Assembly: GCA_000004695.1 (NCBI GenBank)
Contig: CM000153.2
Span: 4,864,001 to 4,928,000 of the forward strand
Length of the DNA: 64,000 bases
Reading direction: 5' to 3'
Source: Dictyostelium discoideum
Taxonomy: Eukaryota
Below, piece by piece: positions 7,672-35,939 of this stretch (position 1 is the first letter of the stretch; every line of letters starts with the position of its first letter). A model generated the notes under the pieces. It searched no databases, had not been told where the DNA came from, and saw nothing but the letters and a program-made list of their open reading frames with translations. The translations under genes and the position numbers were made by a program.

Positions 7672-10659
7672 TTATTTAATATTTCTCATTTTACCAATTA
7701 AATTACAAATATTCTTTTCAGCATTTGTTAGCAAAGATATATTATTTGTATTATTATTATTATTATTACTATTACCATTATTATTATTATTATTGTTATT
7801 ATTATTATGTAATTGTTGATGATAAAATGAAGTAAAAGTATCACGATTCATTTCTAATAATGATTGAGTTTTTTGTAATAAAGGTTCAGCACTAACACCT
7901 AAAGCAGATAATACATTAAATAAATAACCAATATCATTACTAAGTTGTTGACATGATGGTTCATTTAATGTTATAATTTCAACTATTGTTTGTAAATATA
8001 ATTTTTCAGTTGCTTTTGCTACAATTGTAATCCATTGATGAGCAATACCATCTTCCAATTCATCATCTTCATCATTTTCATCATTTTCATTATTATTATT
8101 TGTATTAATATTAATATCTTGATCAGCATCTTGTTGTTCTTTTTCTTGTTGTTGTTCTTTTTCTTGTTGTTCTTGTTGTTGTTCTTGTTTTTCTTTTAAT
8201 TTTTCAATTAATAATTGTTCATCATCAAATTGTTTTTCTCTTTGATATTGAATTAAAAGATTTTGATAAAAATCATCTTCAGAATTCGAGCATGTTTTAA
8301 TTGGATATTGTAATGATGTTGATAATGAAAATCTTGTTAATTCTTCTTCAGAGTATGGATCTAATTGTTGTGGTATAGTTAATAAATGATCAGTAATTTG
8401 TGATATGTAACTTAGACCGCCGCCACCACCACCGCCATTATTTTGACTTGGGTTATTATTATTATTATTATTATTATTCCATTCATTTGAAACTATTTTT
8501 GGTAATTCCTTTAATTTCAATTTAATGAAATAAATTAAAGTTTCATATACAAAATGTTGAGAAATTGATAAAAGTTTTGAAATTTGATTAAATGATTCTT
8601 GTAAAAGTAATGGTTTCTTTGAAATTGATTGATCTTTTGAAACTGATGATGATGATGATAGTGGAAGTGGTGATGATATTATATTCTCTAAATTTTGTAC
8701 ACTAATTTGTAATTTTTGAATTTTATTTAAATCTTTACCTAATAAAAATTTTCTAATATTACAAATGAATTGATCATTATCATTATTACTACTACTATTA
8801 TTACTATTATTACTATTACCAAGATAATGAATAATATTTAAACTAGTTGAATTATCAAATTGTTGAAATTTATTTAAAAGTTGATGAATTGATTGAAGTA
8901 AATTCATTGCACCTTGAAAGTATTCCCAATTTTGTAATGTTGCACTTGTTCCAACACTATTACTATTACTATTACCACTACCACTACCACTTCTTGAATG
9001 ACTTCTAGTATGACTATTTGTAAGTTTTTTAACTGGATCAACTTCACCATTAATGCTTGATGGTGTATTTATTTGTTGTTGTTGTTGATTAAAATTTGGA
9101 AAAGTACCACTACTACCAATAATATAATTTGTTGTTAAACCAGTTATAAATTTTAATTCATTAATTGTATCTCTTAGAATTAAAGAGATTTCAGTGAATA
9201 TTTGATTTAAAACTGTATTGACATAACTATCGATATCAGTTGTATGTGTGAAATCAAAGAATCTTTCAATTGATTGTTGTGCGATTTGAAATGATTTTGG
9301 TATAAATTGATTCTCGATATTTTTAATTATATTTGTAAAATCAGCATTACCACTACCACCACTGCCACCACCACTCTTCTTTTGTAAAGTTAAAATTGGT
9401 GAAATCGATTGCAATTGTGATTTAACTGATTTAATTTCATATTCACTAAATTTATTTTGAAAGTATTTATATGGTTCAAATATTACTTTAAATAATTTAT
9501 CTACTGCTGGTGAAGTAGTTGGTGTTGAAGAGGAATTAATTATGTTTGGAAATATTGGTGATAATGATTTTAAGAAAGAACAAGTTGTTTTATAAATTGA
9601 TAATAGTTCATTAACTTTAATTGGTTGTTGAGTTGTTTGATTGGCAATCGTAATGGCTTGATCAATTCTACTTTGAACATTTGGATTAATCGTAGTGAAT
9701 AAATGAATGATTAAATTCTCCAATACTTGAATATAATCTATTGGACATAATCCCGACAACCAATTGAATTCACTATTTATCATTACCAAAACTTCATCAT
9801 AAAATTTTGATAACCAATTATGAAAGTTTGATGATGACGATGACGACGACGACGACGACGAATAAGAATTCCATAATAATTTTAAAGGATCGATTCTAAC
9901 TTGATAATAATAAATAAAGAATTTATCTTGACGTTGAATATTTGTAAATATTTTTAAATAGTTTTTACAAGATTCTAAATCTTTTTGTTGTAATGATTGT
10001 TGAAGTGGTTGTTTTAATTGCGATTCTAAACGATCTTGATATACATTGAATTTCTTTGACTGTTCTCTAAACTCGGGTACGTCTGATAGGACTGATAATG
10101 ACTGTTTCACTTCTTCCAATTTATCAGAGATCATTAGGTAATCGTTTGATGAGAATAACTGGTCTACAGTTTTAGAGAAAGATAATAACTTCTCTGCCTC
10201 TTTTAACGAACGAATTGATATCTCCATTCTAGATTTCACCTGATCCAATTTCTCAATGACCGACACTGTCTCCATTGATTGGGGTGAATCATTATTCATC
10301 TCTCCGATTTTAGATGATATACTTTTAATACGGTTCTTTAAATGTAATGATTCTTTTCTAATTCTATCCACTTCTCTAATTGATTTTGGTACAATTAATA
10401 ATGATTCACTAGTTATACTCTCTAATGATATATTTAGTTCAATTTGATATAATTGTAATTTTGATAAATAGTTTGAACATATATTTTCAATTTCTAATTC
10501 TGCTTTTATATTATTTTGATCTGTTAATATTGATTGTTGATTAGATTTTGCATTACCACTACTACTACCACTACCACCACAATCACTTAATAAATTATTT
10601 ATCCATGTTTTTGAATTAAAATCATTTGAAGAAAATATATCTTTTAATTCATTATTGAT

Positions 10660-16622: not shown

Positions 16623-17941
16623 TTATTTTTCAAAATTAGATTTAATTGGGAATAGGAAATTAAAAGTATCATCAGATTTTTTTTGAAGATCATCATTAAT
16701 AAATTCCAAACCATCATTTAAACATATTGAGTTTGTTTCATCTCTGGAATTTTTAAGGATTTCTAATTTTTCATCAAAATTTTCATTATTTAATTGAATA
16801 TATAATACATCATCTGAACCTATAATTGGTTTTGAATATCTTAATGCAAATTGAATATATAAATGTGAGATTTGAAAATCAGTTATATTTCTAAACTTAT
16901 TTGAAGATGTAATTTCTAAACCTGCACCAAATTCTTCTTGCATTTTATACCATATCTTTCTATTGAAAACTTGAATTCCATGAGCTGGTATACTCCTTTT
17001 TCTATCTTGACCCCAAATTGAAGCCAATGCTCTATTTGAAAATAAAATTGCTTTTGAATATTGGTCATATAAATCTAGAAAATAGGCTTTTCTACCCATT
17101 AAATATTCCGTTAAAAAAACGGATTGTCTAAAATTTTTATTTTCATCAAAATAATCACTTTGTTTAACTGGTCTACTAAAAAATATATCATCATTTAAAT
17201 ATAAAAAACAATTTGAAACTTCAATTGGTAAATTCCAAAAATTTGATTCAATTGAATTTGAATTAAATGTTGGTAAATCTGACCTAAAAATTTTAAAAAA
17301 AAAATAAAATTACCATATTAATATTAATTAATTTATTTATAAAATTATTAAAAATTTAATTTAATTTACTTTTTATGAAAATAATCACTATGTGAAATAA
17401 ATCTAACATTTTCAGAATTTTCAATATCGAACCATGTCGGTATTTGATTTGCAGTAATTATAAAAATATTTTTAATCCATGGTGCATATTGTCTAACACT
17501 TCTTAATGAATATTTTAAAGTATTGAGATCTCTAAATGAAGATGGTATATATCTATTTACAGAGATATCATCAGCTTGTAAACTCATTCTAGTTTTCTTA
17601 TGACTATCGATATGTTTTGGATCTGAACCATTTACCCAAGTATATACTAAATCCACATATTCACATTCTCTTGATAATACAATTTGTTTTATTCTTTTTT
17701 CTTTTTCTGTTAATTCTATTGGTTTTGATTGAAAATAATTATAAATTGTATGTTCATCAAAAACTTTATTTTCACCATTAATCGTGTACCCAATTCTATT
17801 AAATAAAACAAATGGAAAATCTATATCTCTTAATTTACAAAATAAGAATGTATTACTTATTATTACTATTATTACAGCTATTAAAAAAACACCTCGTTTC
17901 AGTAGGTATTTTGGTATTCTCTTTGTAGCAGACAGCCTACT

Positions 17942-17944
<3 letters not shown>
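16623..17944 (-). CDS. Stealth-family / GlcNAc-1-phosphotransferase-like protein, paralog A. Two exons: 17944-17370 and 17283-16623.
   Basis: VDLVYTWVNGSDP, LKYSLRSVRQYAPWIKNIFIITANQIPTWF and YLNDDIFF, with a …NFEK* tail. Same exon structure as paralog B (GTAAAT donor, TTTTTAG acceptor, phase 2). The start is taken at MSRLSATKR (17944), after a poly-K artefact. Confidence 0.7.
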
Positions 17945-17988
<44 letters not shown>

Positions 17989-18203
17989 CCAACTTTACAA
18001 TTTAGTTAATTTTCAGTTTAATAAATATAATAAACTATTCAATTATTACTGTTACAATTATTATTACTGTTATTTTTTTTTTTTTGTTTTACCAGAGGAA
18101 AAAAAAAATTAAAAAAATTAAAAAAATTAAAAAAAAAATGTCAACTAAAAATAAAAAATATCTTAAATTTCAAAAAAAACCGATTAACATGAACAATCTA
18201 TTG

Positions 18204-18438: not shown

Positions 18439-18902
18439 TTAAATTTTATTTTTTGCTTCTAAAACGAATTTCTCTTCAAATTTATTCTTTGGTGTCATTG
18501 AGGCAGCAATGGTGTAATATTCATTTGCTTTTTCATATTGTTTTAATTGAGTGTAACAATCAGCGATTGAAACTATACATCTAATTAAAGTTGGATCAAT
18601 TTGATAGGAACTTAAAAAATAATCCAATGCTTCTTGGTATGTTGCATTTGGCACTTTACCAAATAAAGCATTTGCAACACCCCTCTCAATCCAACTTATT
18701 GATGCCACTGAATAACTCCATCTTCCTAATAAAAATAAGGTTATACTATCATTTGGTCGTAAATTTAAAGATTTTAATGCATACTCTTGAATTTTTGGTG
18801 CATTTCCCACTTTTTCTTTTGAACTTAAAAATTCACCTAATCCTGATGTTGAAATTGCCCACCACTTTATTATTTATTAATATTATTAATAATATTTTTT
18901 TT

Positions 18903-18936
<34 letters not shown>

Positions 18937-19209
18937 ACATACTTTATATAAATCAGGATGTTCATTAGTTGGTATGAATTTATTTATTATTTCTAATGAA
19001 GTTTGAATATATTTTAATTTTGTATCTCTATCTTCTTCTAAATCACTTTGATTATAATATGCACGAGCTAATCTCCAATTGATTTCAACATTCTTATTGA
19101 CATTATCTTGGTCCTCTTGTTGATTAATAAATTCAATGATTTCATCATGTTTACATTGGTCATGTAATTTATCTGCTTTATTAATTATTTCTTCCATTGG
19201 TAAAAACAT
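18439..19209 (-). CDS. TPR-like protein, possibly regulator of microtubule dynamics (RMD/FAM82) family. Two exons: 19209-18943 and 18864-18439.
   Basis: …VEINWRLARAYYNQSDLEED… followed by TPR-like helices. The GTATGT donor after …HPDLYK and an AAAG acceptor join in frame to WWAISTSGLGEF…. Exon-1 end coordinate is uncertain by ±1 because of an ambiguous homopolymer count. Confidence 0.4.
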
Positions 19210-19289
19210 TTATTTTACAAGTTTTTTATTACTATAATTATTATTTTTTTTATTTTTTAATTACCAAAATAAAATTTTTTTATTACCCC

Positions 19290-19329
<40 letters not shown>

Positions 19330-19826
19330 AAATATTTTAAAATAAAATAAATTAAAATTTTAATTCTCAATGCTAACACCAAAACTTGACACATTCTGAA
19401 AGTTATATATAACTCTTTTAATCTTTTCTTTTTTTATTTCAAAACACCACACATAATATTTTTTTGATTATTTATTTTTATTTTCATTTTTATTTTTTTT
19501 TTTTTTATTCTCACTTTTGTTTTAATTTTTATTTTATTTTATTTTTATTTTATTTTTATTTTTATTTTTTTTAATAAAAAAGAGGAGGAAAAAAAAAATT
19601 GTTAAACCATGTGATAAATTTTCAGACACATCATACGAACAACACTTAACTATACGCTCTTACTCAAACATATGCATACATGTAGTGTGCCCAATATTTT
19701 TGGTTTTAAAAAAGAGAAATGTTTAAATCCTAAAATAAAATGTATTTTTTATTATTTAATTATTTATTTATTTAATTAATTATTTATTTTTTTATTTGTA
19801 TTTTTTTATTTTTATTTGTTTTATAT

Positions 19827-20270
19827 TTATAAAGCTAACATTGAGAGTAAAGCAAGGGCAAAAAGAGCAAAACTAGCACCAATTCTTGTAGAATCAGAAG
19901 AGTCAGACTCTGAAGAGTTTGTTTTGTCTGGAACACAAACAACTGAGTATGTTGTAGTACCAATTGCAACTTTTGATTTACCATCTACACAAGTAAATTC
20001 ATTTGAAGAAGTAGGAGTTGCAGCACATTTTGTATCTTGAGCACCAAATTGATTAAATGTAAACTTTGAGGTAGAACCAGTTACTGGTAATACATTAAGA
20101 ATTGAACCACAAGCAGATTGGCAAGTATTAACCTTTAATTCAACTGGTGTTGTTACACATGGAGAGCTGGCATCTGAATTTGTAACTTGAAAATTTGAGA
20201 AAGTTTCAGCTGCATTTGAAGAAGCAATAATTGCTACAATTAATAATAATAATGGTTTAGTAAATTTCAT
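19827..20270 (-). CDS. Ponticulin-like small secreted, probably GPI-anchored, protein; array copy 1
   Basis: 147 aa with an N-terminal signal peptide (MKFTKPLLLLIVAIIASSNA), six Cys, an S/T-rich stalk, and a C-terminal hydrophobic tail (GASFALFALALLSMLAL) typical of a GPI signal. Overall organisation resembles ponticulin. One of five near-identical copies. Confidence 0.6.
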   Translation of the reverse strand: MKFTKPLLLLIVAIIASSNAAETFSNFQVTNSDASSPCVTTPVELKVNTCQSACGSILNVLPVTGSTSKFTFNQFGAQDTKCAATPTSSNEFTCVDGKSKVAIGTTTYSVVCVPDKTNSSESDSSDSTRIGASFALFALALLSMLAL

Positions 20271-21048
20271 TTTGAATTGGTTTATTTTTTTTATGTATTG
20301 GAATTTATATATATATAATTTGTTTTTATATTGATTATAATTTTTTTTTTTTTTATTATTACTATTTTTTTTTTTATTCTCAATTTATACTAAAAAAAAT
20401 TATTTTTATTATTTTTTTTTTAATTTTCAAATATTTAGTATTAACACGTTGGTAAGAAACTTAATTTTTTTTTTCTAAACCATTGTTTTTTAAAAAAAAA
20501 AAAAACCAAGATTTATTTTTGATTTTTACTTGAAAAATGCAAGCAAAGCAATTTTATTTTTTTTTTTTTTTTTTTTTCTTGGAGAAATCTTTGATTGAGA
20601 AATTTACAATGACAAACTTTTTTTGTTATTTGAAAAATAAAATAAGGATTATTATTACTTAAAAAAACAAGAAAATTTATATATTTTTTTTTTTTAAAGA
20701 TAGTTTTACCAGGAGAAAATTTAAAATTAAAATATGGAAACAATAGAATTTTTAATATTGAAATTCGATGCGATTGTAGATAATACTAATTGATTTCATT
20801 TCATTTTTTAAGTTAGAAATTTAGTTAGTTTCCTAATATTATTTTAAATTCCATTTTAAAAATTAAATATTTCTTATGATTAATTATTTAAACTATGCAC
20901 AAAAAAGTTAATTTGTAAATTTAATGTTAGTAATATTTTAGATGATTAGATTTTTTATTTTATAATTTTGAACATATCATAAACGAATGTTAATTTTAAT
21001 GAGAGTGTGGAAAATTAATTTAATTTATTTATTTGTTTTTTTTGTTTT

Positions 21049-21492
21049 TTATATAGCTAACATTGAGAGTAAAACAGAGGCAGCAAGAGCAAAACTAGCA
21101 CCAATTCTGGTAGAATCAGAAGAGTCAGACTCTGAAGAGTTTGTTTTATCTGGAACACAAACAACTGAGTATGTTGTAGTACCAATTGCAACTTTTGATT
21201 TACCATCTACACAAGTGAATTCATTTGAAGAAGTAGGAGTTGCAGCACATTTTGTATCTTGAGCACCAAATTGATTAAATGTAAACTTTGAAGTTGAACC
21301 GGTCACTGGTAATACATTAAGAATTGAACCACAAGCAGATTGGCAAGTATTAACCTTTAATTCAACTGGTGTTGTTACACATGGAGAGTTGGCATCTGAA
21401 TTTGTAACTTGAAAATTTGAGAAAGTTTCAGCTGCGTTTGAAGAAGCAAAAACTGCAACAATTAATAATAATAATGATTTGGTAAATTTCAT
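21049..21492 (-). CDS. Ponticulin-like protein, array copy 2
   Basis: Identical or nearly identical to copy 1 (147 aa). Confidence 0.6.
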   Translation of the reverse strand: MKFTKSLLLLIVAVFASSNAAETFSNFQVTNSDANSPCVTTPVELKVNTCQSACGSILNVLPVTGSTSKFTFNQFGAQDTKCAATPTSSNEFTCVDGKSKVAIGTTTYSVVCVPDKTNSSESDSSDSTRIGASFALAASVLLSMLAI

Positions 21493-21594
21493 TTTTCTAT
21501 TTGATTTTTTTTATTGGGATTTATTTGTATGGTATAATTTGTTTTTTTTTAATTCTTATTTTTTTTAAAATGTTCTATTTATACTCAAAATCAG

Positions 21595-21629
<35 letters not shown>

Positions 21630-22229
21630 TTTTAAATGTTAGGTATTAACACGTTGGTAATAAACTTTTTTTTATTTTTCATCTTGAATTTCAAAAAAAA
21701 AAAAAATCCAAGATTTGTTTTCGATTTTTAATTGAAAAATGCTAGCAAAGCAAATTATTTTAAATTATAAAGAAACTAACAAACTGAATTTTATTTAAAA
21801 GTAGTGTTGAAAATTATATTTCTTATAAAAAAAAATAAAAATTAAAAAAATAAATAATTCGAGATCATTTTTATTAATTATTTTTTTATTTCACTAATAT
21901 TTTTAGTTTTTTTTTTTTTTTATTTTTTTTTATTTAATTATTTATTTAAATTAAATGAGTTTAAATCCCTATTCAACAAGAAAATTAAACTAAAATGAGT
22001 TTTTTAGTTTATATAATAAATAAATTTGAAAAATAATATAGTCACCCATTCCACCAATCATAACCTCGAATATTTACAAACAACATTATCCAGGAATAAA
22101 TCAGATAAAATTTTGAAAGATAATTTAAAAATAACTTTTTATGGAATATTCCATTTTAATAATTGTTAAAACTATGGACATATATTTCACATGATTATAT
22201 ATTTTTTTTTTATTTATTTTATTTGTTTT

Positions 22230-22673
22230 TTATAAAGCTATCATTGAGAGTAAAGCAGCGGCAGCAAGAGCAAAGCTAGCACCAATTCTTGTAGAATCAG
22301 AAGAGTCAGACTCTGAAGAGTTTGTTTTATCTGGAACACAGACGACTGAATATGTTGTACTACCAATTGCAACTTTTGATTTACCATCTACACAAGTGAA
22401 TTCATTTGAAGAAGTAGGAGTTGCAGCACATTTTGTATCTTGAGCACCAAATTGATTAAATGTAAACTTTGAAGTAGAACCAGTTACTGGTAATACATTA
22501 AGAATTGAACCACAAGCAGATTGGCAAGTATTAACCTTTAATTCAACTGGTGTTGTTACACATGGAGAGCTAGCTTCTGAATTTGTAACTTGAAAATTTG
22601 AGAAAGTTTCAGCTGCGTTTGAAGAAGCAAAAACTGCAACAATTAATAATAATAATGATTTAGTAAATTTCAT
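22230..22673 (-). CDS. Ponticulin-like protein, array copy 3
   Basis: Identical or nearly identical to copy 1 (147 aa). Confidence 0.6.
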   Translation of the reverse strand: MKFTKSLLLLIVAVFASSNAAETFSNFQVTNSEASSPCVTTPVELKVNTCQSACGSILNVLPVTGSTSKFTFNQFGAQDTKCAATPTSSNEFTCVDGKSKVAIGSTTYSVVCVPDKTNSSESDSSDSTRIGASFALAAAALLSMIAL

Positions 22674-22973
22674 TTTTGTTTTTGATTTTTTTTATTGGAA
22701 TTTATTAATATGGTATAATTTGTTTTTAAATATATATTTTTTTTTTTTATAATTTTTTTTTTTTTTCAAAGTGTTCTATTTATACTCAAAAAATTTTCAA
22801 TAATTTATTTTATTTTTATTTATTTTTTTTTATTTTCAATTATTTGGTATTAACACGTTGGCAATAAACCTATTTTTATTTTTCATCCAGGATTTTAAAA
22901 AAAAAAAATAAAAACCAAGATTAGTTTTTGATTTTTACTAGAAAAATGCAAGCAAGGCAAATTTTATTTTTTA

Positions 22974-23009
<36 letters not shown>

Positions 23010-23441
23010 CGTGATGAAATCTTTGATTAGGCAAATATAAAATGAGAAACTTTTTATTTTATCTGAAAAACAAAATTAAGACTTTATTACTTGAAAAAAA
23101 CAAAACAGTATTATTTTTAGTTTTTTTTTATTTTTTTTATTTTTTTTTTTTTTTGTTGTAAAAATTAAAATATAATTATACCAAAACCCAAAAAAGGTTT
23201 AAAATTAATTAGATTGTTTTTTAAAATAATATTCCTTTTTAATTTCCTTAAATTGAAATCAAAAAATTTCTTTTTTAAACAGTATAATTTTTTATTATTT
23301 ATTGTTAAAATTGTGAGCGAATTTATAAATTAAATATTTTTTATTTTTTAAGTATGAAAATATTTTTAATTTTATAACTTTTCAAAAGCAAAAAGTAAAA
23401 TGAAATTGTTTTAAATAACTAATAATAATAAAATATATTAT

Positions 23442-23885
23442 TTATAAAGCTAACATTGAGAGTAAAGCAAGGGCAAAAAGAGCAAAGCTAGCACCAATTC
23501 TGGTAGAATCAGAAGAGTCAGACTCTGAAGAGTTTGTTTTATCTGGAACACAAACAACTGAGTATGTTGTACTTCCAATTGCAACTTTTGATTTACCATC
23601 TACACAAGTAAATTCATTTGAAGAAGTAGGAGTTGCAGCACATTTTGTATCTTGAGCACCAAATTGATTAAATGTAAACTTTGAAGTTGAACCGGTCACT
23701 GGTAATACATTAAGAATTGAACCACATGCAGATTGGCAAGTATTAACCTTTAATTCAACTGGTGTTGTTACACATGGAGAGTTGGCATCTGAATTTGTAA
23801 CTTGAAAATTTGAGAAAGTTTCAGCTGCGTTTGAAGAAGCAAAAACTGCAACAATTAATAATAATAATGATTTAGTAAATTTCAT
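23442..23885 (-). CDS. Ponticulin-like protein, array copy 4
   Basis: Identical or nearly identical to copy 1 (147 aa). Confidence 0.6.
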   Translation of the reverse strand: MKFTKSLLLLIVAVFASSNAAETFSNFQVTNSDANSPCVTTPVELKVNTCQSACGSILNVLPVTGSTSKFTFNQFGAQDTKCAATPTSSNEFTCVDGKSKVAIGSTTYSVVCVPDKTNSSESDSSDSTRIGASFALFALALLSMLAL

Positions 23886-24131
23886 TTTGTATTTGATTTT
23901 TTTGTTGGAATTTATTTATATGGTATAATTTGTTTTTAAATATATTTTTTTTTATTATTTTTTTTTTTTAAAATGTTTTATTTATACTCAAAAAAATTAT
24001 TTTTTTTTATTTTTCAAATATTTGGTATTAACACGTTGGTAATAAACTTTATTTTACTTTTCATCCTTGATTTCAAAAAAAATAAAAACCAAGATTTGTT
24101 TTCGATTTTTAATTGAAAAATGCAAGCAAAG

Positions 24132-24163
<32 letters not shown>

Positions 24164-24588
24164 CATGATGAAATCTTTGTTTATGCAAGTTTAAAATTAG
24201 AAACTTTTTTATTTTATCTGAAAAACAAAATTAGGACTACTATTACTTGAAATAAAATACCATTTTATTATTTTTTTTTTTAAACATATTTTGGTTGTAG
24301 TAAATTTAAAAATAAAATATATTAAAAAACAAATCAAGGTATAAAATTAATATTATACTATTTTTTAAATAATATTCCGTTTTTTTCCTTAAATTATTAT
24401 CAAAAATTGCTTTTTTTAAATTCGTATAATTTTTTATTATTTATTATCAAAACTGTGAATTTTTCATATTTTTATTTTTTTATAATTTTATAACTTATCA
24501 CAATTTTTCAAAAACAAACTATCCAATGAAATTGTTTTAATTAATTAATCTTAATAAAATATATTATTTTTTTTATTTGTTTTATGTT

Positions 24589-25032
24589 TTATAAAGCTAA
24601 CATTGAGAGTAAAGCAAGGGCAAAAAGGGCAAAGCTAGCACCAATTCTGGTAGAATCAGAAGAGTCAGACTCTGAAGAGTTTGTTTTGTCTGGAACACAA
24701 ACAACTGAGTATGTTGTAGTACCAATTGCAACTTTTGATTTACCATCTACACAAGTGAATTCATTTGAAGAAGTAGGAGTTGCAGCACATTTTGTATCTT
24801 GAGCACCAAATTGATTAAATGTAAACTTTGAGGTAGAACCAGTTACTGGTAATACATTAAGAATTGAATCGCATGCAGATTGGCAAGTATTAACCTTTAA
24901 TTCAACTGGTGTTGTTACACATGGAGAGCTAGCTTCTGAATTTGTAACTTGAAAATTTGAGAAAGTTTCAGCTGCATTTGAAGAAGCAATAATTGCTACA
25001 ATTAATAATAATAAAGAATTATTTAATTTCAT
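24589..25032 (-). CDS. Ponticulin-like protein, array copy 5
   Basis: Most diverged copy (MKLNNSLLLL…, one Gly-to-Asp change); otherwise identical. Confidence 0.55.
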   Translation of the reverse strand: MKLNNSLLLLIVAIIASSNAAETFSNFQVTNSEASSPCVTTPVELKVNTCQSACDSILNVLPVTGSTSKFTFNQFGAQDTKCAATPTSSNEFTCVDGKSKVAIGTTTYSVVCVPDKTNSSESDSSDSTRIGASFALFALALLSMLAL

Positions 25033-25567
25033 TTTTGTTTTTTAAAATAATATTTTTTTTTATAATTTTTCTTTTTGATTGGTGCTCTATTTATACTTAA
25101 AATTTTTATTTCTATTTTTTTATTTTTGGTATTGACACGTAGTTGAAGTTTATTTTTATCTCTAAATCCTGGTTTTTTAAAAAAAAAGATTAGTTTTCGA
25201 TTTTTACTTGAAAAATGCTAGCAAGGCAAATTATTTTAAACACGCTTATATTATTTTTTTTTTTCTTTATAATGAAATCTTTGATATGAAAATTATAAGG
25301 AGAAACTTTTTATTTATTTGAAAGTTGTTTTTTTTTCAATTTTACATTTTTATTTTATTAATGGTTTGAGACAATTCACAATTAAAAAACTAATAATAGA
25401 AAAAAAAAAATCCAGCCAAAAAAAAAAAAAACAAATAAAAAGCTACACAAAAAAGATTATTTTTTAAATTATATATTTTATTATAATTTTTTTTTTTTTT
25501 TTTATTCTTTATACATATAAAACTATTAAATGTATAAAAGAGATAATATTATGATTATTTTGGTTTT

Positions 25568-25608: not shown

Positions 25609-28600
25609 CTAATATTTAATAGAGGAAGAATTTGATAAATTTGGATTATTATCATGGAATTTTTTCAAAGCATGAGATAATTTCATATTTAATAACATGT
25701 TTACATTAGGATCATCGACTGGAATTACTTTAGATTTAACATCGCGATCTAATAAACCAAGATTTTGAGGTGGGTCAAATTCTAAAAGAACACCATCATC
25801 TACCATTTCATTTGATTTAATGAATTTGAAAGGAATTTGGAAGAGGAAAGAACTATGTAAGAAATTCTTTTTAGATTTTGATAAGATAATTCTATGATCA
25901 GAGATGATGATGGTACATTCTTGATTGATGATATGATGCCAAATGTAACTATCAGAAGCATGTTTACCTTTGTGAGCGGTTTTCAAAAGGAACCAACCTT
26001 CACTTTCAACTTCATCGAATGGACGTAAAACGTTATCATGAGAAAAGCATCTTGGAGGACGAACACGTTCTGCTTGACTTTGAAGATTTGTAGTGTTTTT
26101 AATACCTTCGGTTGTTTTAGTTGCTAAATCGATTACGGCGGTAGTTGGTTTAACTGCAACACCTACAACACCTTGAGCTAAACCTTTGGCAAAACCTGCG
26201 AAACCACCTTTCTTTGCACCTTCAACTGGTTTTGTAACGATACCTGTAATACCTTGAAGAATACCACGACCCAAACCAATACCACCCATTGCTAAACCTT
26301 CACCAACATGGGAAGGTTTACGAGCTTGATGTAATTTTCTTTCTTGAAGATATTTTTCATCAAATGAAAGAGTTGCAACACCAGTACCCAAAGTACCGGT
26401 TAACTTTGACAAAGTATTGAAAGTACCAAATACAGAGTTCTTTACAAAACTACTTGTACCTTTTGCTAAACCTTTAGTGAAGTCTGCTGGTGATTTAACT
26501 AAACCTTGAGCTGGCTCTACGAAAAAGTCATGAACACCAGTACCGAAATTTCTAAACAAACCAACAGGATTACCAAGGAAATCGACAGAACCTAAAATGT
26601 TATAAAATTGTCTGAGAGCTTGTTGAATGTATGATGTTTTAATCTTATCAATGATAGTTGATCTTGAAGTGAATGGATGTTCCATTAATAAACCTTGTAA
26701 TGTAATTGGTGCACGATCTAATCTTGTCAATGATAAACCTAAACCTTCAACCAATGATAAAATCTTATGATTGGATTTAATTAAACCATCATTTTGGAGA
26801 GCTAAAGTTAAATTGATCTTTATTGGATTCAAAACTAATAATGCGAAATAAACCATTTTAATTGTTGAAGAATCTGAAGTTGGTGGTTCAATTGAGACAG
26901 CATTATATAGTGTTGATGTTAAACTATCAAGACCACTACCACTTTGTCTCATTTGACTACTTGTCATTCCATTATTATTATTATTATTTGAAGCATTATT
27001 TCCACGACCAAATGATGGAATTGAATCAACGAAATCTAAAACTTCTTTAATCCAATGATCTTCGAGTTCAATTGTCATCTCTTGAATTAAAGTTGAAAAG
27101 TATCTAAAGTAATCAATATTATCAATGGTAGATTTAATGATAACAGCATGTAAAAAGTCTTTTCTATGTTCTTTATCTGGTGAAACTGTATGAATGAGTA
27201 CAGGGAAATCTGTTTTAATCAATTGATTATCAATTTGTAACTCTGCTAATTTAACCTCAACCGTATTTTCAATTGAACTTTGAGTTGCAATGATAAGGAA
27301 ATCTTTCATTGAAATGTAAGCCAATTCCTTTGGTGTCTTATCGATAATTGAACAACCAATACCAGAGCAACGAATATTGAAATGATATTCACTCTGTGAT
27401 TGTGATAAATTGACAGCTTTATTATCGGTCCAAGCTTTAATTGAACGGAATTTCTTTTCATTGGTAGAGAAGAGTAATACACGAGATGGACCATCGATTG
27501 TAATTGTAATGTAGAGATCAGTACGTTCATGTTGAAGTTTATAACCTTTAATCTTATTGACATTGATACGCTTTTTCAATGTTTTACCCTCTACAGCGAC
27601 AGAGAGAACATATTCTGCAGATGGTTCATCCCAACCATAGCAAAGCTTTTCTTTTGGTTCAATATAATCGATATTCTCTGGTGAATCACGTTGGAAGAAT
27701 GAGATTTTGAATTGAGTATCATTTTGAATGATATAAGGTGGACTTTCTTTACTTGAAAGTGGAATTCTAATGAAATGAGTACCTTGTTTCTCTTTGATAT
27801 TCACATGGAATAAGAGAGAATCGTGATCAGGACGTTCGGTATTTCTACTCTTTACAACGTAATCACTAATGGAATCAACAAAGAAACCACCTGACCAACG
27901 CCATTCTTGAGGATTCTTTTCATTGGTAATTGGTCTAATTGAAATCTTTTTATTTTCAACATTCTCTTCCCAATGGAATGGTTTATATTCACCAGGATCT
28001 AATCTTAGTTCACCTAGTAATCTAACAGGATTTGAAACACCTTTACCATTACTACCTGAACTACTACTCAAACCACTACCACTGAAATTGAGTGCCATCT
28101 TATCGATACCATCGATAGTACTAACACATTGAGCAACTAGAATTGGGAATGGTAAATCATTGCAAATTACATTCTTTGGTACAAAAGTGACGGTTTTAGA
28201 GAGACGGAATCTTTCATTTGGACAGAAATCAACTTTGTATGAGAGTTCATAAGTACGAGTTGGGTTTGTTAAAAAGATAGTATTTGGATTACCAACTGCA
28301 GAGATTGGGAATTTCTCACAGAAACTCTTATTCATTGGTTGTTCAGCTTGTAATGGAATACGAGCACGAATTGTGTTGTTACTATAGAGCACTGGTGGTC
28401 GTGGTAATTGATCTGGTAAATTGGGTGGTACCAATAGTACTTGATTATCGGATAACTTGACTTCAATTGGTAAGAGGGAATTATTGACTAACCAATATTG
28501 ACAATAAAATGATAGAGTACGAACGCCTTTAATCAATTCGGTACGTTCAATATCCAATGAAATTTCACGATTGTTTTGTTGAAGTTTGAATGTTTTTGTA

Positions 28601-31600
28601 AAAGTTGGAGAGGTTGCATCACCTGATACCAAGGTATGTTTAGTTTCTGGGAAATTCTCTAATTCACTTACGATCGCCACTAAATTTGAACCTGGTTGAT
28701 AGTAATGACAATCGATTTTCTCACCTGATCCCATGTTAACCTTATCAATGGTTGTACCTGGGATTGAGAGTTTAAATGGATATGGTAAAATGTTTTCAAT
28801 TTGAATGGGTGGGAAGAATTTAAAGGTATTATTGAAACGATCACAATTTCTATTGGCAATGGTTTTATGAACCAATGATACAAACATACCAACTTTATCC
28901 ACTGTTTGAAGTTTAAAGAGTTTACTATTTTCATGATCTGGTAATTTGTAAATATCGATTGGATCGGACCAATATGGTGAATTCTCTAACTTTATCCAAA
29001 ACTTGCAAAGATCCTTTGAGACTAAAATTGGTAAAGAGAATTTAGAATGTTTAGCGATTGAAAAGGGTGAACCATTCTCTTGACATTTCAATTCCAAATT
29101 TAATGATGTATTATTTTCAAATTGATCCATTGATTTAATGTAACAACATTTACTGCCATCAGGACGTAAACGTACTTCACAAGTGATGAATTCATTGGTT
29201 GAACCAATTCTATAGATTCTATAACCAACTGCATCCATTGATAGATTTGAAATCTTTGAGCCTTGAATAAATAATTCTATATTCAAATGTTCACCCATTG
29301 TTGCATCTCTACTCTTTGAAATTTTCATTGGTAATGATACTGGTTCCGATGATTCTGTCAATTGGAACATTTCACTATCAACCTTTGGAATATGATATTC
29401 TAATGTTACACCAGTTTGATTTGAAATCCAATGAGAATGGAATGAAATTTTACTATCATTCTTTTCACCACCTGGTAAATATTTATTTAAAACACTTGGT
29501 CCATTAAATGATTGAACTAAACCGCTACCACTGGTACTACTATTATTACTACCTGTTGAAGTTGTTAAATTTGATGCATTCAATGATGAACTTAAGTTTG
29601 CTGCATCCATTTGATCAATTTTCTCCACATGAATCATTGCACTACTAATAGTTTGAAGTAATGAATGTGAGACATTGATATTTAATAATTCACGAGTTGC
29701 CAAGAAACTACCTTTAATCTTACCGGTACGATTCTTTTTCAAATCGACAGAGAAACTCCAATCTTCAATAACTGGTTCAAATTTCATATTAGTTTCATTG
29801 AAATAATCACCTTTAATTGACATTGAAGCCTTTGATTCTAAATCTGTGCTCCAATTCATTGCACTTGCTTCAATATCTGCAAAGAATAATTCTATAATTG
29901 GTATATACATTTCTGGTGATTCATTAATAAATAAAACACTAACATTTGGACATGAGAATCTTAATTTTTCATTATTTGTAAATAATTCTTCATCTTTTTT
30001 ACCACTATTACTATTACCAGATGTTGAAGTTTGGAATGAATTTGTTGATTTATTTAATGATGGTAATGAAGTTGAACTTGAAGCCATATTATCAAATGAT
30101 AATTGTCTCTTCTTTTGTTGTTCTTGTTGTTTTTGTAGATTTGTTGTAATATTATTTAAAATCTTTAAGATTGCTTTTACATCATCATAAGAGAAGAAAA
30201 CTTTCATAGCGGTACAAGAGATACCAATATCTTGTTTCCACTCGGTTGAAGTTAAATTCTCTTTAATATATTTAATGGTGATCATTTCAATTGGTTTCAA
30301 AATTTGAATTGGTCTTGAACCTTGATTTTCAGATTCTGTTGAAGATGGTTTATAAATGTTAACTTTAGTATTTTCAATGACAACTGTAGCATTTTCAATA
30401 CCATGTGGATCTCTACGGAATTGTACACCAACACGAGTTTTCAACATTAAACATCTTGTAGTTGATAATGTTTCATCTTCAACCAATGTAACTGATGGTA
30501 CTAAAGTTGCTGTGAATGTAATGGTTGGTGATCTAAATATTTCTTTCTCTTCTTCATCTTCCATACCTGCTTCTTGTGGATATGATGATAATGAATTATT
30601 TGATATTGATGATGAAATTGTTTTAGATTCTTTACCACCAATTGATGAAGTTCTACTTCTATTTTGACCAATAATTGATTGTGATCTTACTTTTTGTTGT
30701 TGTTGTTGTTGAGATGGAATAAATGATGATGATGATGATTGTTGTTGTTGTTGTTGAAGATCATTATCATCTTTTTCAATTGATGGATCCATTAATGAAT
30801 TTAATTCACTTTCTAAACTTTCCAAATCTAAATCTAAATCAACATCCATATTATTTGTATCATGTTGTTCTGATAATGGTACCATAAAGAATTCAGAAAT
30901 CATTAAGAGAGGAGTTGGCGAAAGGAATAAACAAGTGTTATTAATATTGACATTAATATATTGATCACCCAAAAGATTATCACGAATATAACCAACTTGA
31001 AGGAATGGTGCAACTGATTCAGTGTTTACTTTATTCTCTAAGAGGTTCTTAAAGATATTGGTTGAATTTGAACGAGTATCAGAGAGTAAAATTGATTTCA
31101 TACTTAATTGAATGTTTGTTTTATTCTTATCGGTATTCTTTACATCGACATCAATGCCACGAACGATGAAATGAGCTATTTCACCTTGAGCATCCAATGA
31201 ACTAATCTTGAAACTAACATAGTCCAATACCAAATGAATACGTAATAAAACTTTACCCATTTTTTGAATAACCTCTTGTTCTGTGAAATATTGCATATCA
31301 TTAGAAGTAATACGACCCATTTCAAAAGGATCACCCATATTTGAAAGTTTTTTAATTTCTTGAACCTCTTTATTTGCAAGATCCAATTCTTTTTGTACAT
31401 TTTGACTTAAACCCAAAAAGAAACGATATTGATTTTCATCCAAATAGAAAGCGAAATGAGAAATTGATAAATCAATAGTTTGATCCTCAACTTCTGGATC
31501 AGTATTTGGTACCAAGAATTTTGAGATACCTAAATCAATTGTTAACTTCTCCAAGAAGTAACTTGATCTATTATCGGATAAAATGGTGATATTTGCATCT

Positions 31601-34600
31601 TGTAAATGAATTTTCATATTTTCCATTGGTGCCATTGTCTTATCATGATATTGCCAACCATTTGAAATAATGATTTTACCCAACTCCATAATTAAAGAAT
31701 TCTTTGATCTAGTTGCTTGTGGTATAACTAAAACTGGTGTTTCAACAACAATATCTAATTTCATCTTTGGTATATGTTTATTTGTATTTTGTTGAAGTGA
31801 TGTTAATAATTTTTTATTCTTTTCAAGATCTAATTCTCTTTCACTCTTTTCATGATTATCATCAGATCTTGGTGTTGATGTTGATGATGATGAAGATTGT
31901 TGTTCATTTAATTTTGAATCAATTGATTTTGATTTTTCAATTGATTTATTATTATTATTGCTATCATCTTGTTTTAAAATTGGATCTAACATACCACCTA
32001 AAAAATAATTTTGAAGATGAATTAAGAAACCAACATTTGCATTGAATAAGATTGATTTAACATTTGCATTAACTGAAGCATCATAACCTGCATAATTTGA
32101 TAGAGTCATTGAGAAAGTTTCATATTTAAAGTCTAACATATCACCAGATGTATTCTTTGGAATGATAATTTGTTTATAGTTTGAAATGGTTGGAGTTAAA
32201 TCATCCAAAATGATTGAACCCAATCTACCTTGAACCAACATACGATTATCTTTAAACATTGAAACATCGGTTGAAACATTATTAATTGTAAAGATACCCA
32301 ATAATTCATTATTATCTTGATTTAATGCTAAACCTAAACTATTGATATGAACACTAAATTTCATTGAAACAAATTCAGTTGGACCTTTCTTTTTTGGTAC
32401 ATGACGAACTGAACGAATGATAACTCTTCTTGTAGTGGTACCAGATGCAGTTTTACTTGAAACCACTTTTTCATCAGGACCAACTGGTTTACTATTACTA
32501 CCTGTACCTGTAATAATCTTTCTTGAAACGATTTGTGGTGATTGTTGATTTGGTGATTGTTGATTTGGTGATTGTTGATTTGGTGATGATAAGTGAGCAT
32601 TAGGTGAGGTTGCTGCTGTACCACCACCTTCAGATGAATTAATTGGTACCACTTTATTTCTACTTAATAGTCTTGGATAAGCTTTACTAATTTGATCAAT
32701 ATTTTCAGGATCTTTTTGTAATGATTTTGCTAATTTTAATAATTGATAAATGGTTGATGGATTAATAACCAAATAAAAAGAATGAATCTTTAAATCGATG
32801 GACATATCTATTTTATTAAATTCTGGTGAAGCTGTTTGAATTTGTTTGAAATGCATTTGAACCAAACTATCCTTACCCAATGAACGATCTGCATGTGGTG
32901 GATTTGAAGTTGCCAATTTATTTAAAGTATTCTTTGTGAAACAATCTTCAATCTCTAATGATGATAGTTTAAATGTACCAGACATATCAAAAGTACGTTG
33001 TTGGAAACCAACATTAATATCAGAGAAAACCACTCTAATTAAATCGGATTGATTATTTGATAAAGTTAAACTAATTGATTTAATTTCAAATTCAGCTTCA
33101 ACTAATTTTGCATTCAATAGTAATTCAATGTTTTCTTTTGATTTCTTTAAATCATTTGATGAATTAACATCAACAGGTGCAGAAGAGGAAGAAAAAGAAT
33201 GTGGTGAAGTTGAAATTAATTTTGGTGAAACTGAAGAAGGTGAATTTGAATCATTAATTGGTGTTATGGTTGCTTTTGGTTTACCACTAGTAACTGGTAT
33301 ATCTGCAGTGATGGCATTTAAAATAGTTAACAATTGTTTGAATTTCTTATCAGATAAATAGAAATCGAATTTTGGTAATTCACCTTTAATTTTTAATTTT
33401 GTCATTGTTAGGTTATTTTGTTGAATTGATGAAAAGATTTTCAATTGAATATCGAATTTTTTAATGATTGAGTTATGATGTTTTAGAGGATGACCTTGTT
33501 TATCATTGACACCACCAATAGTTGGTGGTTTTTTATCACCAGTACTAATTGCAGACTTTAAATCGTCTGATAATAAAACTTGAATCGATTCAAATGATAC
33601 ATTAAACTTATCGTAGAGATCAATTTCACTAGTGCTACCTGCCAATTTATTGCTACCTTTAACGAATGCTGAAGTATCAGAACGTACGACCAATTTACCT
33701 AAATCTACAATTAAAATATTTGAACGTTCATTAATTACATCCTCTGGTATGAAAATGACTGGAGCATGAATGTTAACAGCTAAACCTAAAACCTTGTGAT
33801 TATCAATAGCATCTTGTAGTTGCATTTTCGCTTGTTCTTTAATGTCTTCTAAATGAGCACCAGCTCTATTGGAAATATTGGTAATATCTAAATTTGGGTC
33901 ATGGAAAAAGTCTACAACTTTCATAATTAATGGTTTGGTGACAATGATATTCAATGGATCCATATTTAACTCTACAGAGAGATCTAAATTTTTATCGGGT
34001 GGACGAGTATCAACAATGACACTAGCAAAGGTTCCAGTACCTTTGGTTGGTACACTTGCAATAATCTTTGGGAAATGAGTACGTTTAGTGAATTGATCGT
34101 AAACTTCAAACAAATGAATACCAGCCATCACTTTAATACCTTCATTACGTTGTTCGAATTTCAAAGATAAACCAGTGTACAATGCTTCAATGAAAACTTG
34201 ATTCGCCTCTACCAATTGAATTGCAAAACCTTTGATTTCAAAATTACCAATAATCTTTACCCAATCTGGTGGTTCTTCACTTGCGGAAACCACATCATTA
34301 TATTCAATGGTTTTATAGAGTTCATCACGTTCTTCACTTGATAATTGAATTTTTGGTGCAGCTTTTTCATCTTCATCCTTTTTAGTATTGAAAATATTTT
34401 GAAAGAAACCACGTTCTTGACGTTTTGAATCGAGAAATTGTTTACGTATCTTATTTTTCTCTGTCTCTTTTTTAATCTCTGCATAGGCCAATGATCTAAA
34501 GTAAACTATATCTTCAAATGATAAACGCTCTTCCAATTGATTCAATTGTTCCAATTCATGTTTATTCAATGGTTGTAACCAATCAACCTTTGGTATATTT

Positions 34601-35939
34601 CTTTTGAATAATGGAATGTATGCTAATCTTGCGCGACGTCTTTGTGCTATAAATTCCCATGATCTACTAAATCTCTTTTCTCTAATTTGTTCAACAATAA
34701 CTTGACCAACATATCTCCACCATAATTTTGGATTCTCTGATACCTTTACAATAGGTCTAAACTTTAAATACTTTATATCTCTTAAATATTCATTTGTAAA
34801 ATTTAATATACTTAAAATATTTTGATATTGACCTGATGATAATGTACATGTAATTTGTGACATTACACATTCAACCAATATTTTTGGTATTGATTTTTCA
34901 ATAATATCACTTTTATTAATATTTAACTATTAAATAAAATAAAATTAATAAAAAGTTAATATATAAATTATTATTATTTTAAATATTATTATTATTATTA
35001 TTATTATTAAAATATATTTATATTTACTTTTAATTGTGAAGAAATTGGTTTAATAATATATTTTGATAATAAAGAGAATGAAGCAGATGATGGAATTAAA
35101 CTTGTAAATGCTTTTGTAAATTCATCAAGTTTTAAATTTTGAAGTGAATCTGCATTATCATCAATATAAAAACCTAATGAATCCATTAATGCTAACTTTT
35201 TTATAAACTTTGATTTTGAACTATCAACAAATGATGGTATCCAAAATTCATCGGTTGATTGAATTGATAATTTATCTAATGTTATACCAAGTGCATATAA
35301 CTTTATTTTTTTTTTTTTTTTTTTTTTTTTTATTATTTTAGTAAAATAGAATTACTTTATTTTATTATTATTATTATTATTTTTTTTTTTTTTTTTTTTT
35401 TTACTTACTTTACCAATATCATTTTTATTTTCAAATCTAATATGAACTTTATTAATTACAATTTGTAAATTATCAATAATTTTTGTAACTAAACGATCAG
35501 TGAATGAATCTGATTTTTCGGATTGTAATGAAGAGATTTCATTCTCTTCAGCATCTTTAATTGATTTAATCCATTCATAATTTTCTAATTTCTTTTTCTT
35601 TAATTCTGCTTGTTTCTTTGCTTCTTCTTTTTCATCGTATTTATAGTTTTGTGTTTGTGGTACTGCCAATGCATAGATACAATCGATATTGATAATTACA
35701 GGTTTAGATTTTAAATCTTTCCAAGGTACTTTGAGATCTAATTTACCAAGAAAACCCTTCTTCACTGTAATGGGTAAATTTATTGGTAGATTCGCCAGAG
35801 CATCCTCTTTTAATTCTAAATTTTGAAGTTGTACACTACCTCCAAATATACCAATCTTTAATTGATCTTTATTTAAATTCTTTACATATTCACCAAGTAC
35901 TCTTGATAAAACATCTGATACTAATCCTTCAAATACCAT
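25609..35939 (-). CDS. VPS13 family bulk lipid-transfer protein. Three exons (35939-35409, 35300-35028, 34926-25609), about 3,373 aa.
   Basis: N-terminal chorein domain MVFEGLVSDVLSRVLGEYVKNLNKDQLKIGIFGGSVQLQNLELKEDAL…VPWKDLKSKPV…VHIRFEN, then LYALGITLDKLSIQSTDEFWIP (compare human GISLQNLSMQTTDQYW). GTAAGT and GTAAAT donors and AAAG/ATAG acceptors join in frame to the 9.3-kb exon, whose N-terminal M (TTG) is artefactual. The paralog (A-F) cannot be assigned. Confidence 0.85.

Follow-up and report, generated by a model that had tools for sequence, protein, structure and literature searches.

The ponC1-ponC5 locus of Dictyostelium discoideum, very probably an old array of ponticulin paralogues whose coding parts are homogenised by gene conversion

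Histone, ubiquitin and globin duplicates are comparable cases of genes under concerted evolution, and arrays of this kind combine a homogenised coding region with diverging spacers, a copy number that varies by unequal crossing-over, and edge copies that are the most diverged. In the tandem arrays of trypanosomes, the paralogues of one species resemble each other more than orthologues of different species do (PMC1855330). Here, we analysed a stretch of 64,000 nucleotides of Dictyostelium discoideum DNA (assembly GCA_000004695.1, contig CM000153.2, positions 4,864,001 to 4,928,000; hereafter the window), which has a G+C content of ~20% and carries five head-to-tail genes for ponticulin-like proteins, ponC1 to ponC5. 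Our results indicate that these genes very probably constitute an old array of ponticulin paralogues, with coding parts homogenised by gene conversion and a mature domain under purifying selection. The array shares with its trypanosome counterparts the greater likeness of paralogues within than of orthologues between species; unlike the polycistronic trypanosome arrays (PMC1855330), each ponC unit has its own predicted promoter. It also differs from other arrays evolving in concert in being short (3-7 copies) and incompletely homogenised (number of synonymous substitutions per synonymous site, dS, of ~0.1 among copies), and in that the 5′ end encoding the signal peptide appears to escape homogenisation.

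The closest described protein is ponticulin itself (PonA; P54660), the 17-kDa F-actin-binding and nucleating membrane glycoprotein of D. discoideum. At the plasma membrane, PonA, the product of a single-copy gene, binds F-actin with high affinity and nucleates actin (PMC2290967). PonC, in contrast, is encoded by a tandem array of 3-7 copies. The two proteins are of similar length (143 aa in PonA versus 147 aa in PonC), but their sequences are ~66% different.

The array lies at ~19.8-25.0 kb of the window and consists of five intact 444-bp open reading frames (ORFs) on the minus strand, each encoding 147 aa. Along the forward strand, the coding sequences (CDSs) follow one another as ponC2 (19827..20270; DDB_G0286715, Q54LC3), which is the edge copy proximal to an RMD1-3 gene, ponC1 (21049..21492; DDB_G0286717, Q54LC2), ponC4 (22230..22673; DDB_G0286719, Q54LC1), ponC3 (23442..23885; DDB_G0286721, Q54LC0) and ponC5 (24589..25032; DDB_G0286723, Q54LB9), which is the edge copy proximal to a VPS13-family gene. 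Their start-to-start spacing is 1222, 1181, 1212 and 1147 bp, and a direct-repeat search, which recovered five in-register copies, agrees with the ORF coordinates, as well as with the period of 1.15-1.22 kb given in the initial annotation of this DNA. Because all five translations match the D. discoideum AX4 ‘Ponticulin-like protein C1-C5’ entries of UniProt residue for residue, the locus is the ponC1-ponC5 cluster of this strain and has already been annotated; the initial annotation had thus recognised it correctly from the raw sequence. Overall, we are dealing with an ordinary, known locus, for which the earlier observation is largely confirmed and its interpretation supported with corrections. 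What is new beyond the existing annotation is modest, namely the age of the array, the apparent limitation of conversion to the coding body, and the variation in copy number and unit order among isolates.

One indication of gene conversion is the contrast between coding sequences and their surroundings across species. In a tree of codon-aligned CDSs, the copies of each of the five species form a single clade (200/200 bootstraps), and mean dS within species is 0.045-0.104 versus 0.19-0.73 between species, even orthologues at the same position in AX4 and D. cf. discoideum reaching 0.19-0.26. By contrast, the flanking sequences on either side and the initial 66 nt of the CDS match their positional counterparts in other species. 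For AX4 and D. cf. discoideum, this positional pairing holds at both edges and partly inside the array, with C5 corresponding to copy 1 and C2 to copy 5. The copy proximal to VPS13 carries an MKLNN variant of the signal peptide in AX4 (ponC5), in both wild D. discoideum strains included here and in D. cf. discoideum, though the rest of its CDS resembles the other copies of its own species. It appears that the 5′ end encoding the signal peptide escapes conversion, which would be confined to the coding body. In the two wild strains, the copies correspond to each other by position, while the AX4 copies form a clade of their own; the tempo of homogenisation therefore lies between these two levels of divergence.

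Within AX4, the five copies are mosaics of one another. Their 20 informative sites display 9 of the 10 possible two-versus-three split types, the four-gamete test fails for 92 of the 190 site pairs, and the minimum number of recombination events (Rm) is at least 8. Moreover, sites with identical splits tend to lie next to one another (8 adjacent pairs versus 2.5 expected, P = 0.0005). With only 20 informative sites in five sequences, the evidence for conversion comes from this clustering of patterns and from the between-species contrast rather than from mapped tracts. Together, the species-wise clades, the low dS within species and the AX4 mosaic bear out the homogenisation by gene conversion that the initial annotation had put forward as one of two options. 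These data support an ancient array, the members of which would be held alike by gene conversion of the coding body, accompanied by occasional unequal crossing-over. A literature search returned no description of gene conversion in the ponC array; as an instance of textbook concerted evolution, it adds detail and is not a new kind of phenomenon.

Pairwise, the five AX4 copies differ by 12-28 nt and 5-12 aa, which is more than the 3-6 substitutions counted in the initial annotation. PonC5, at the VPS13-proximal edge, is the most diverged copy, as had been noticed before (mean distance to the others of 22 nt versus 17-20 nt for the remaining copies). Only four residues vary in the mature region (codons 22-128), and most replacements affect the signal peptide or the C-terminal tail, so that the near-identity originally ascribed to the entire protein holds mainly for the mature part. 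The ratio of nonsynonymous to synonymous differences per site (pN/pS) among the copies is 0.27 overall, with values of 0.095 for the mature region, 0.44 for the signal peptide and 1.27 for the C-terminal tail. The mature domain is hence under purifying selection (pN/pS ~0.1), with the signal and anchor peptides drifting. If the terminal signals of PonC are removed as in ponticulin, the five genes would yield practically one mature protein.

The relationship of PonC to ponticulin, for which we used the database protein named ‘Ponticulin’ in UniRef and ‘actin binding protein’ at NCBI, is remote. A Pfam scan of all five PonC proteins matched no family model, and word-seeded searches, run with a single sequence, with a profile and even at E ≤ 10, retrieved PonC orthologues and paralogues only and never reached PonA. 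An exhaustive hidden Markov model search of 1.84 billion representative proteins yielded only ten matches at E ≤ 0.001; the seven distant ones looked up (E 3e-23 to 3e-4) are, like the closer PonC relatives, all from Dictyostelium, the genus to which both the PonC and the PonA families are confined in the searches run. Direct comparison nevertheless aligns PonC1 with PonA (BLASTP, 34% identity over 99 aa, E 2e-6), and hhalign of a profile of PonC relatives against one of PonA orthologues gives a probability of 94.4% (E 8.4e-8, 104 columns). Six cysteines are in register, at positions 38, 50, 54, 82, 94 and 112 of PonC and 37, 48, 52, 77, 89 and 104 of PonA. These alignments, added to the exact UniProt matches, support the view that the PonC proteins are true but distant paralogues of PonA, and the label ‘ponticulin-like’, also chosen in the initial annotation, rests on a homology that is real though distant.

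PonC also resembles PonA in its layout, with a predicted signal peptide, six cysteines, an N-glycosylation sequon directly after the last of them, a Ser/Asp-rich linker and an uncharged hydrophobic tail predicted to be a signal of the glycosylphosphatidylinositol (GPI) type. By rule-based inspection, all five copies have a hydrophobic N-terminal core (residues 7-16) followed by SSNA-AE, and their C-terminus is composed of a Ser/Asp-rich SDSSDS, a TRIGAS spacer and an uncharged 14-residue hydrophobic end (mean Kyte-Doolittle hydropathy of 2.4-2.6). The parallel with PonA makes the GPI-anchored nature proposed for these proteins in the initial annotation a reasonable prediction. Beyond the two terminal signals, PonC is devoid of hydrophobic segments. 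In the structure model of PonC1, the core is an all-beta, compact domain of 8 strands, each 4-9 residues long, with three presumed disulfides (predicted local distance difference test score, pLDDT, of ~88-93 over residues 40-110). The PonA model has a mean pLDDT of 45.8, which is too low for a comparison of folds, and a sequence search of the PDB with PonC returned nothing relevant. Other small six-cysteine Dictyostelium proteins have the same layout as PonC, that is, a signal peptide, a ~100-aa cysteine-containing domain, a Ser-rich linker and a hydrophobic tail, and presumably belong to the ‘ponticulin-like’ family; unlike PonC, they are located at other loci, are much more diverged, and are named only ‘hypothetical’ or ‘expressed protein’ in the sources examined.

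We propose that the locus comprises five independent head-to-tail transcription units, each of which would have a TATA-type promoter of ~200-280 bp with the same four sequence blocks and would encode a 147-aa precursor made of a signal peptide, a ~100-residue all-beta domain with six cysteines, a Ser/Asp linker and a C-terminal signal of the GPI type. The array would already have comprised several copies when the lineages of D. discoideum, D. cf. discoideum, D. citrinum, D. dimigraforme and D. firmibasis separated. Since then, short-tract gene conversion would have kept the coding sequences alike within each lineage, with unequal crossing-over altering copy number and unit order. The mature domain would be subject to purifying selection, and drift would prevail in the signal and anchor peptides, the removal of which is presumed from the case of ponticulin. 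The net effect may be that co-regulated genes deliver a high dose of one essentially identical mature glycoprotein of the cell surface or a lumen.

Several points weigh against this reading. A permutation test of the pairwise homoplasy index type, with a window of 5 informative sites, is not significant (P = 0.76), and therefore the conversion tracts must be short and the sample small. The positional pairing of the inner spacers is imperfect, with the upstream region of C4 pairing with that of the second copy of D. cf. discoideum (Dcfd_2), and some unit turnover must thus be mixed with conversion. GPI anchoring, signal cleavage and disulfides of PonC are predicted from sequence rules, and we infer both a role for the promoter blocks and selection of the array for dosage.

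The function of PonC is a separate matter. Actin binding and nucleation, like the proposed transmembrane beta-strands, have been documented solely for PonA; the papers that describe PonC as ‘actin-binding’ refer to work on PonA (PMC4920372, PMC9686302), and for PonC this property is an annotation by similarity. The suggestion of the initial annotation that the copy number may matter for the cortex is conjectural. The only direct protein-level data on PonC come from purified secreted multilamellar bodies, in which PonC was the top-ranked protein in three independent preparations, its peptides being unable to discriminate the copies (PMC4920372). As for expression, starved cln5- cells have ponC1-5 together among their most strongly up-regulated genes (PMC9686302); the eight genes validated as changing specifically on K. 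pneumoniae include ponC1, with the direction not readable from the text (PMC7078664); and ATG9/ATG16 mutants show down-regulation of five ponticulin-like genes (PMC8204557). These published data fit co-regulated, high-dose expression, although the dosage itself is something we infer.

The same observations lend themselves to a different account, which we regard as possible, if tentative: PonC may be an abundant GPI-anchored glycoprotein on the lumenal or outer face of endolysosomal and secreted membranes rather than an actin linker, and the array may serve its bulk supply on bacteria. The first rank of PonC in all three multilamellar body preparations would agree with this, and so would the response of the genes to K. 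pneumoniae (ponC1), to the loss of the lysosomal protein Cln5 (ponC1-5) and, for five ponticulin-like genes, to mutation of ATG9/ATG16. An identity with PonA of only 34%, the lack of any hydrophobic segment besides the terminal signals and the compact modelled beta domain, with three presumed disulfides and strands of 4-9 residues, point the same way. However, the authors of the multilamellar body study themselves consider PonC a possible contaminant or false positive brought in by association with actin, in need of confirmation (PMC4920372), a caution that also tells against the bulk glycoprotein proposed above as the net product of the array. The change of ponC1 on bacteria, given without a readable direction, also detracts from this account. 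Furthermore, ponticulin has the same soluble-looking architecture and yet binds actin (PMC2290967), and because of this, architecture alone cannot exclude actin binding by PonC. In a more specific form, which we deem rather unlikely, PonC would be the major GPI-anchored coat glycoprotein of the multilamellar bodies that are secreted when the cells eat bacteria, with the homogenised array supplying the protein in bulk. If this were true, the annotation ‘ponticulin-like, actin-binding’ would be a case of functional mis-transfer.

As to the history of the locus, an old array homogenised by conversion has to be weighed against independent amplification, by which each lineage would have re-expanded its array from one surviving copy through birth and death, without gene conversion. 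The monophyly of the copies within each species, the copy number of 3 to 7 among species and strains, and the unit order that differs between AX4 and a wild strain would all fit such a scenario, and it follows from these observations that duplication and loss of units clearly occur. Nevertheless, we consider the scenario improbable. The edge spacers, and partly also the inner ones, are orthologous by position in AX4, the wild strains and D. cf. discoideum; the MKLNN variant marks the VPS13-proximal copy in all of them, though the remainder of its CDS is species-like; and the 9 of 10 split types found among the five AX4 copies are impossible under any duplication tree. The combination of positionally orthologous spacers with species-wise clustering of the CDSs, which contradicts independent amplification, is thus already largely seen.

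Recent copying of whole units, the other option raised in the initial annotation, is refuted, because the array is older than the divergence of at least five species, with flanks that have retained their positional orthology; the AX4 spacers are, besides, far more diverged than the CDSs, with distal parts at the shuffled baseline, and the copies are mosaic. Finally, the notion that the array is a collapsed or falsely expanded repeat, understandable given that 1.2-kb tandem repeats in DNA of ~20% G+C are hard to assemble, can be dismissed, since the five copies are all distinguishable (by 12-28 nt and by unique distal spacers), two independent D. discoideum assemblies with Mb-scale contigs have 5 and 4 copies at this locus, four other species have syntenic arrays, and the AX4 PonC proteins each carry two accession series (EAL641xx and KAM99418xx) from two contigs, which suggests two separate assemblies.

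The conserved part of each unit comprises, in addition to the CDS, ~200-280 bp upstream and ~25-60 bp downstream, while the distal 350-450 bp of most spacers are no more alike than shuffled sequence. Of the ~700 bp of conserved upstream sequence claimed for each unit in the initial annotation, what stands is the presence of blocks in all five units and the proximal ~200-280 bp; the distal spacer does not belong to it. Alignment and motif scanning identified four blocks common to all five upstream regions, TTGCTWGCATTTTTC, AAAAATCRAAAAC, CCAACGTGTTAATAC and GAGTATAAATAGA. The CCAACGTGTTAATAC block lies upstream of every ponC copy and occurs 7 times in the window, as compared with 0.69 occurrences expected (≤3 mismatches). 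Recognisable versions of the promoter blocks are present in D. cf. discoideum and D. citrinum, with hardly any in more distant species.

All predicted proximal promoters with 5′ untranslated regions (5′UTRs) are on the minus strand, like the genes they precede. That of ponC2 (20271..20546) has block A at 20532-20546, block B at 20515-20527, the CCAACGTGTTAATAC block at 20438-20452 and a TATA-like element at 20380-20392. For ponC1 (21493..21748), A is at 21734-21748, B at 21717-21729, C at 21643-21657 and TATA at 21574-21586; for ponC4 (22674..22955), the corresponding positions are 22941-22955, 22924-22936, 22847-22861 and 22775-22787, and for ponC3 (23886..24129), they are 24115-24129, 24098-24110, 24025-24039 and 23977-23989. 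The upstream region of ponC5 (25033..25224) retains A (25210-25224), B (25193-25205) and TATA (25086-25098), but it is shorter than the other four, has a deletion in the 5′UTR, and its C (25129-25143) is degenerate, with 3 mismatches.

The interval between VPS13 and the RMD1-3/Stealth genes also harbours ponC arrays in two wild strains of D. discoideum and in four further species of the genus. D. citrinum has 3 copies, D. dimigraforme 4 and a pseudogene fragment, D. cf. discoideum 5, and D. firmibasis 7, the middle five of which are inverted relative to the two edge copies. In the D. firmibasis array (L001, 7003-15259), the two edge copies are oriented like VPS13 and RMD1-3 and the five inner ones opposite; among the latter, the copy at 8735-9196 (153 aa) stands out by its much greater divergence and by an insertion in the Ser-rich linker. 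The D. dimigraforme fragment (L003, 9230-9512), located between VPS13 and the first intact copy, is a tblastn match without a gene call that spans query residues 11-32 and 44-110; it seems to be an edge copy in decay. In D. cf. discoideum, an extra small called gene (L004, 10825-11401, minus strand), encoding 169 aa with a Urocanase Pfam match, separates the last ponC copy from RMD1-3, and D. citrinum has one for 152 aa at the corresponding place (L002, 13978-14706, minus strand); the 617-bp AX4 spacer at 19210-19826 holds no counterpart of either.

Of the two wild D. discoideum strains, one has 5 copies (L005) and the other 4 (L006). The order of AX4 spacer types S2 and S3 is reversed in the 5-copy strain, and no S2-type spacer is present in the 4-copy strain. 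Copy number and unit order therefore vary among isolates of D. discoideum, as unequal crossing-over would bring about. Compared with AX4 (window 20271-24588), the array spacers of both wild strains diverge by 10-16%, and each of their ponC copies carries fixed replacements such as NTC to STC and ATPTSS to AASTSS. Such divergence, alongside the differences in spacer order and copy number, is surprisingly deep for a single species.

The similarity of the copies matters in practice. They cannot be told apart by short-read RNA-seq or by proteomics, a problem that the proteomics of multilamellar bodies has already met (PMC4920372), and a ponC knockout must remove all five genes.

The boundaries of the array are conserved. 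Upstream, a VPS13-family gene (a large exon or ORF at 25609..34878, minus strand, with Pfam VPS13_N, _M, _VAB and _C domains), identified also by synteny, borders the array in every species examined. The kept downstream boundary is an RMD1-3/TPR gene (18439..19209, minus strand; Pfam RMD1-3 and synteny), which consists of two ORF pieces and is presumably split by an intron; it is followed by minus-strand genes of the Stealth family (CR1-CR4) at 16623-17992 and further left. The pairing of RMD1-3 with Stealth is kept in all species examined, and one D. firmibasis gene call merges the two domains into a single 578-aa product. A tRNA scan of the window found none. On the plus strand, ORFs of 72-91 aa at 19816-20040, 20987-21262 and 24584-24802 overlap the 3′ halves of ponC2, ponC1 and ponC5, respectively, in antisense; they have the translation ...ESEESDSEEFVLSGTQTTEYVVVPIATF... 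in common and are most simply explained as a by-product of the codon composition of the sense strand.

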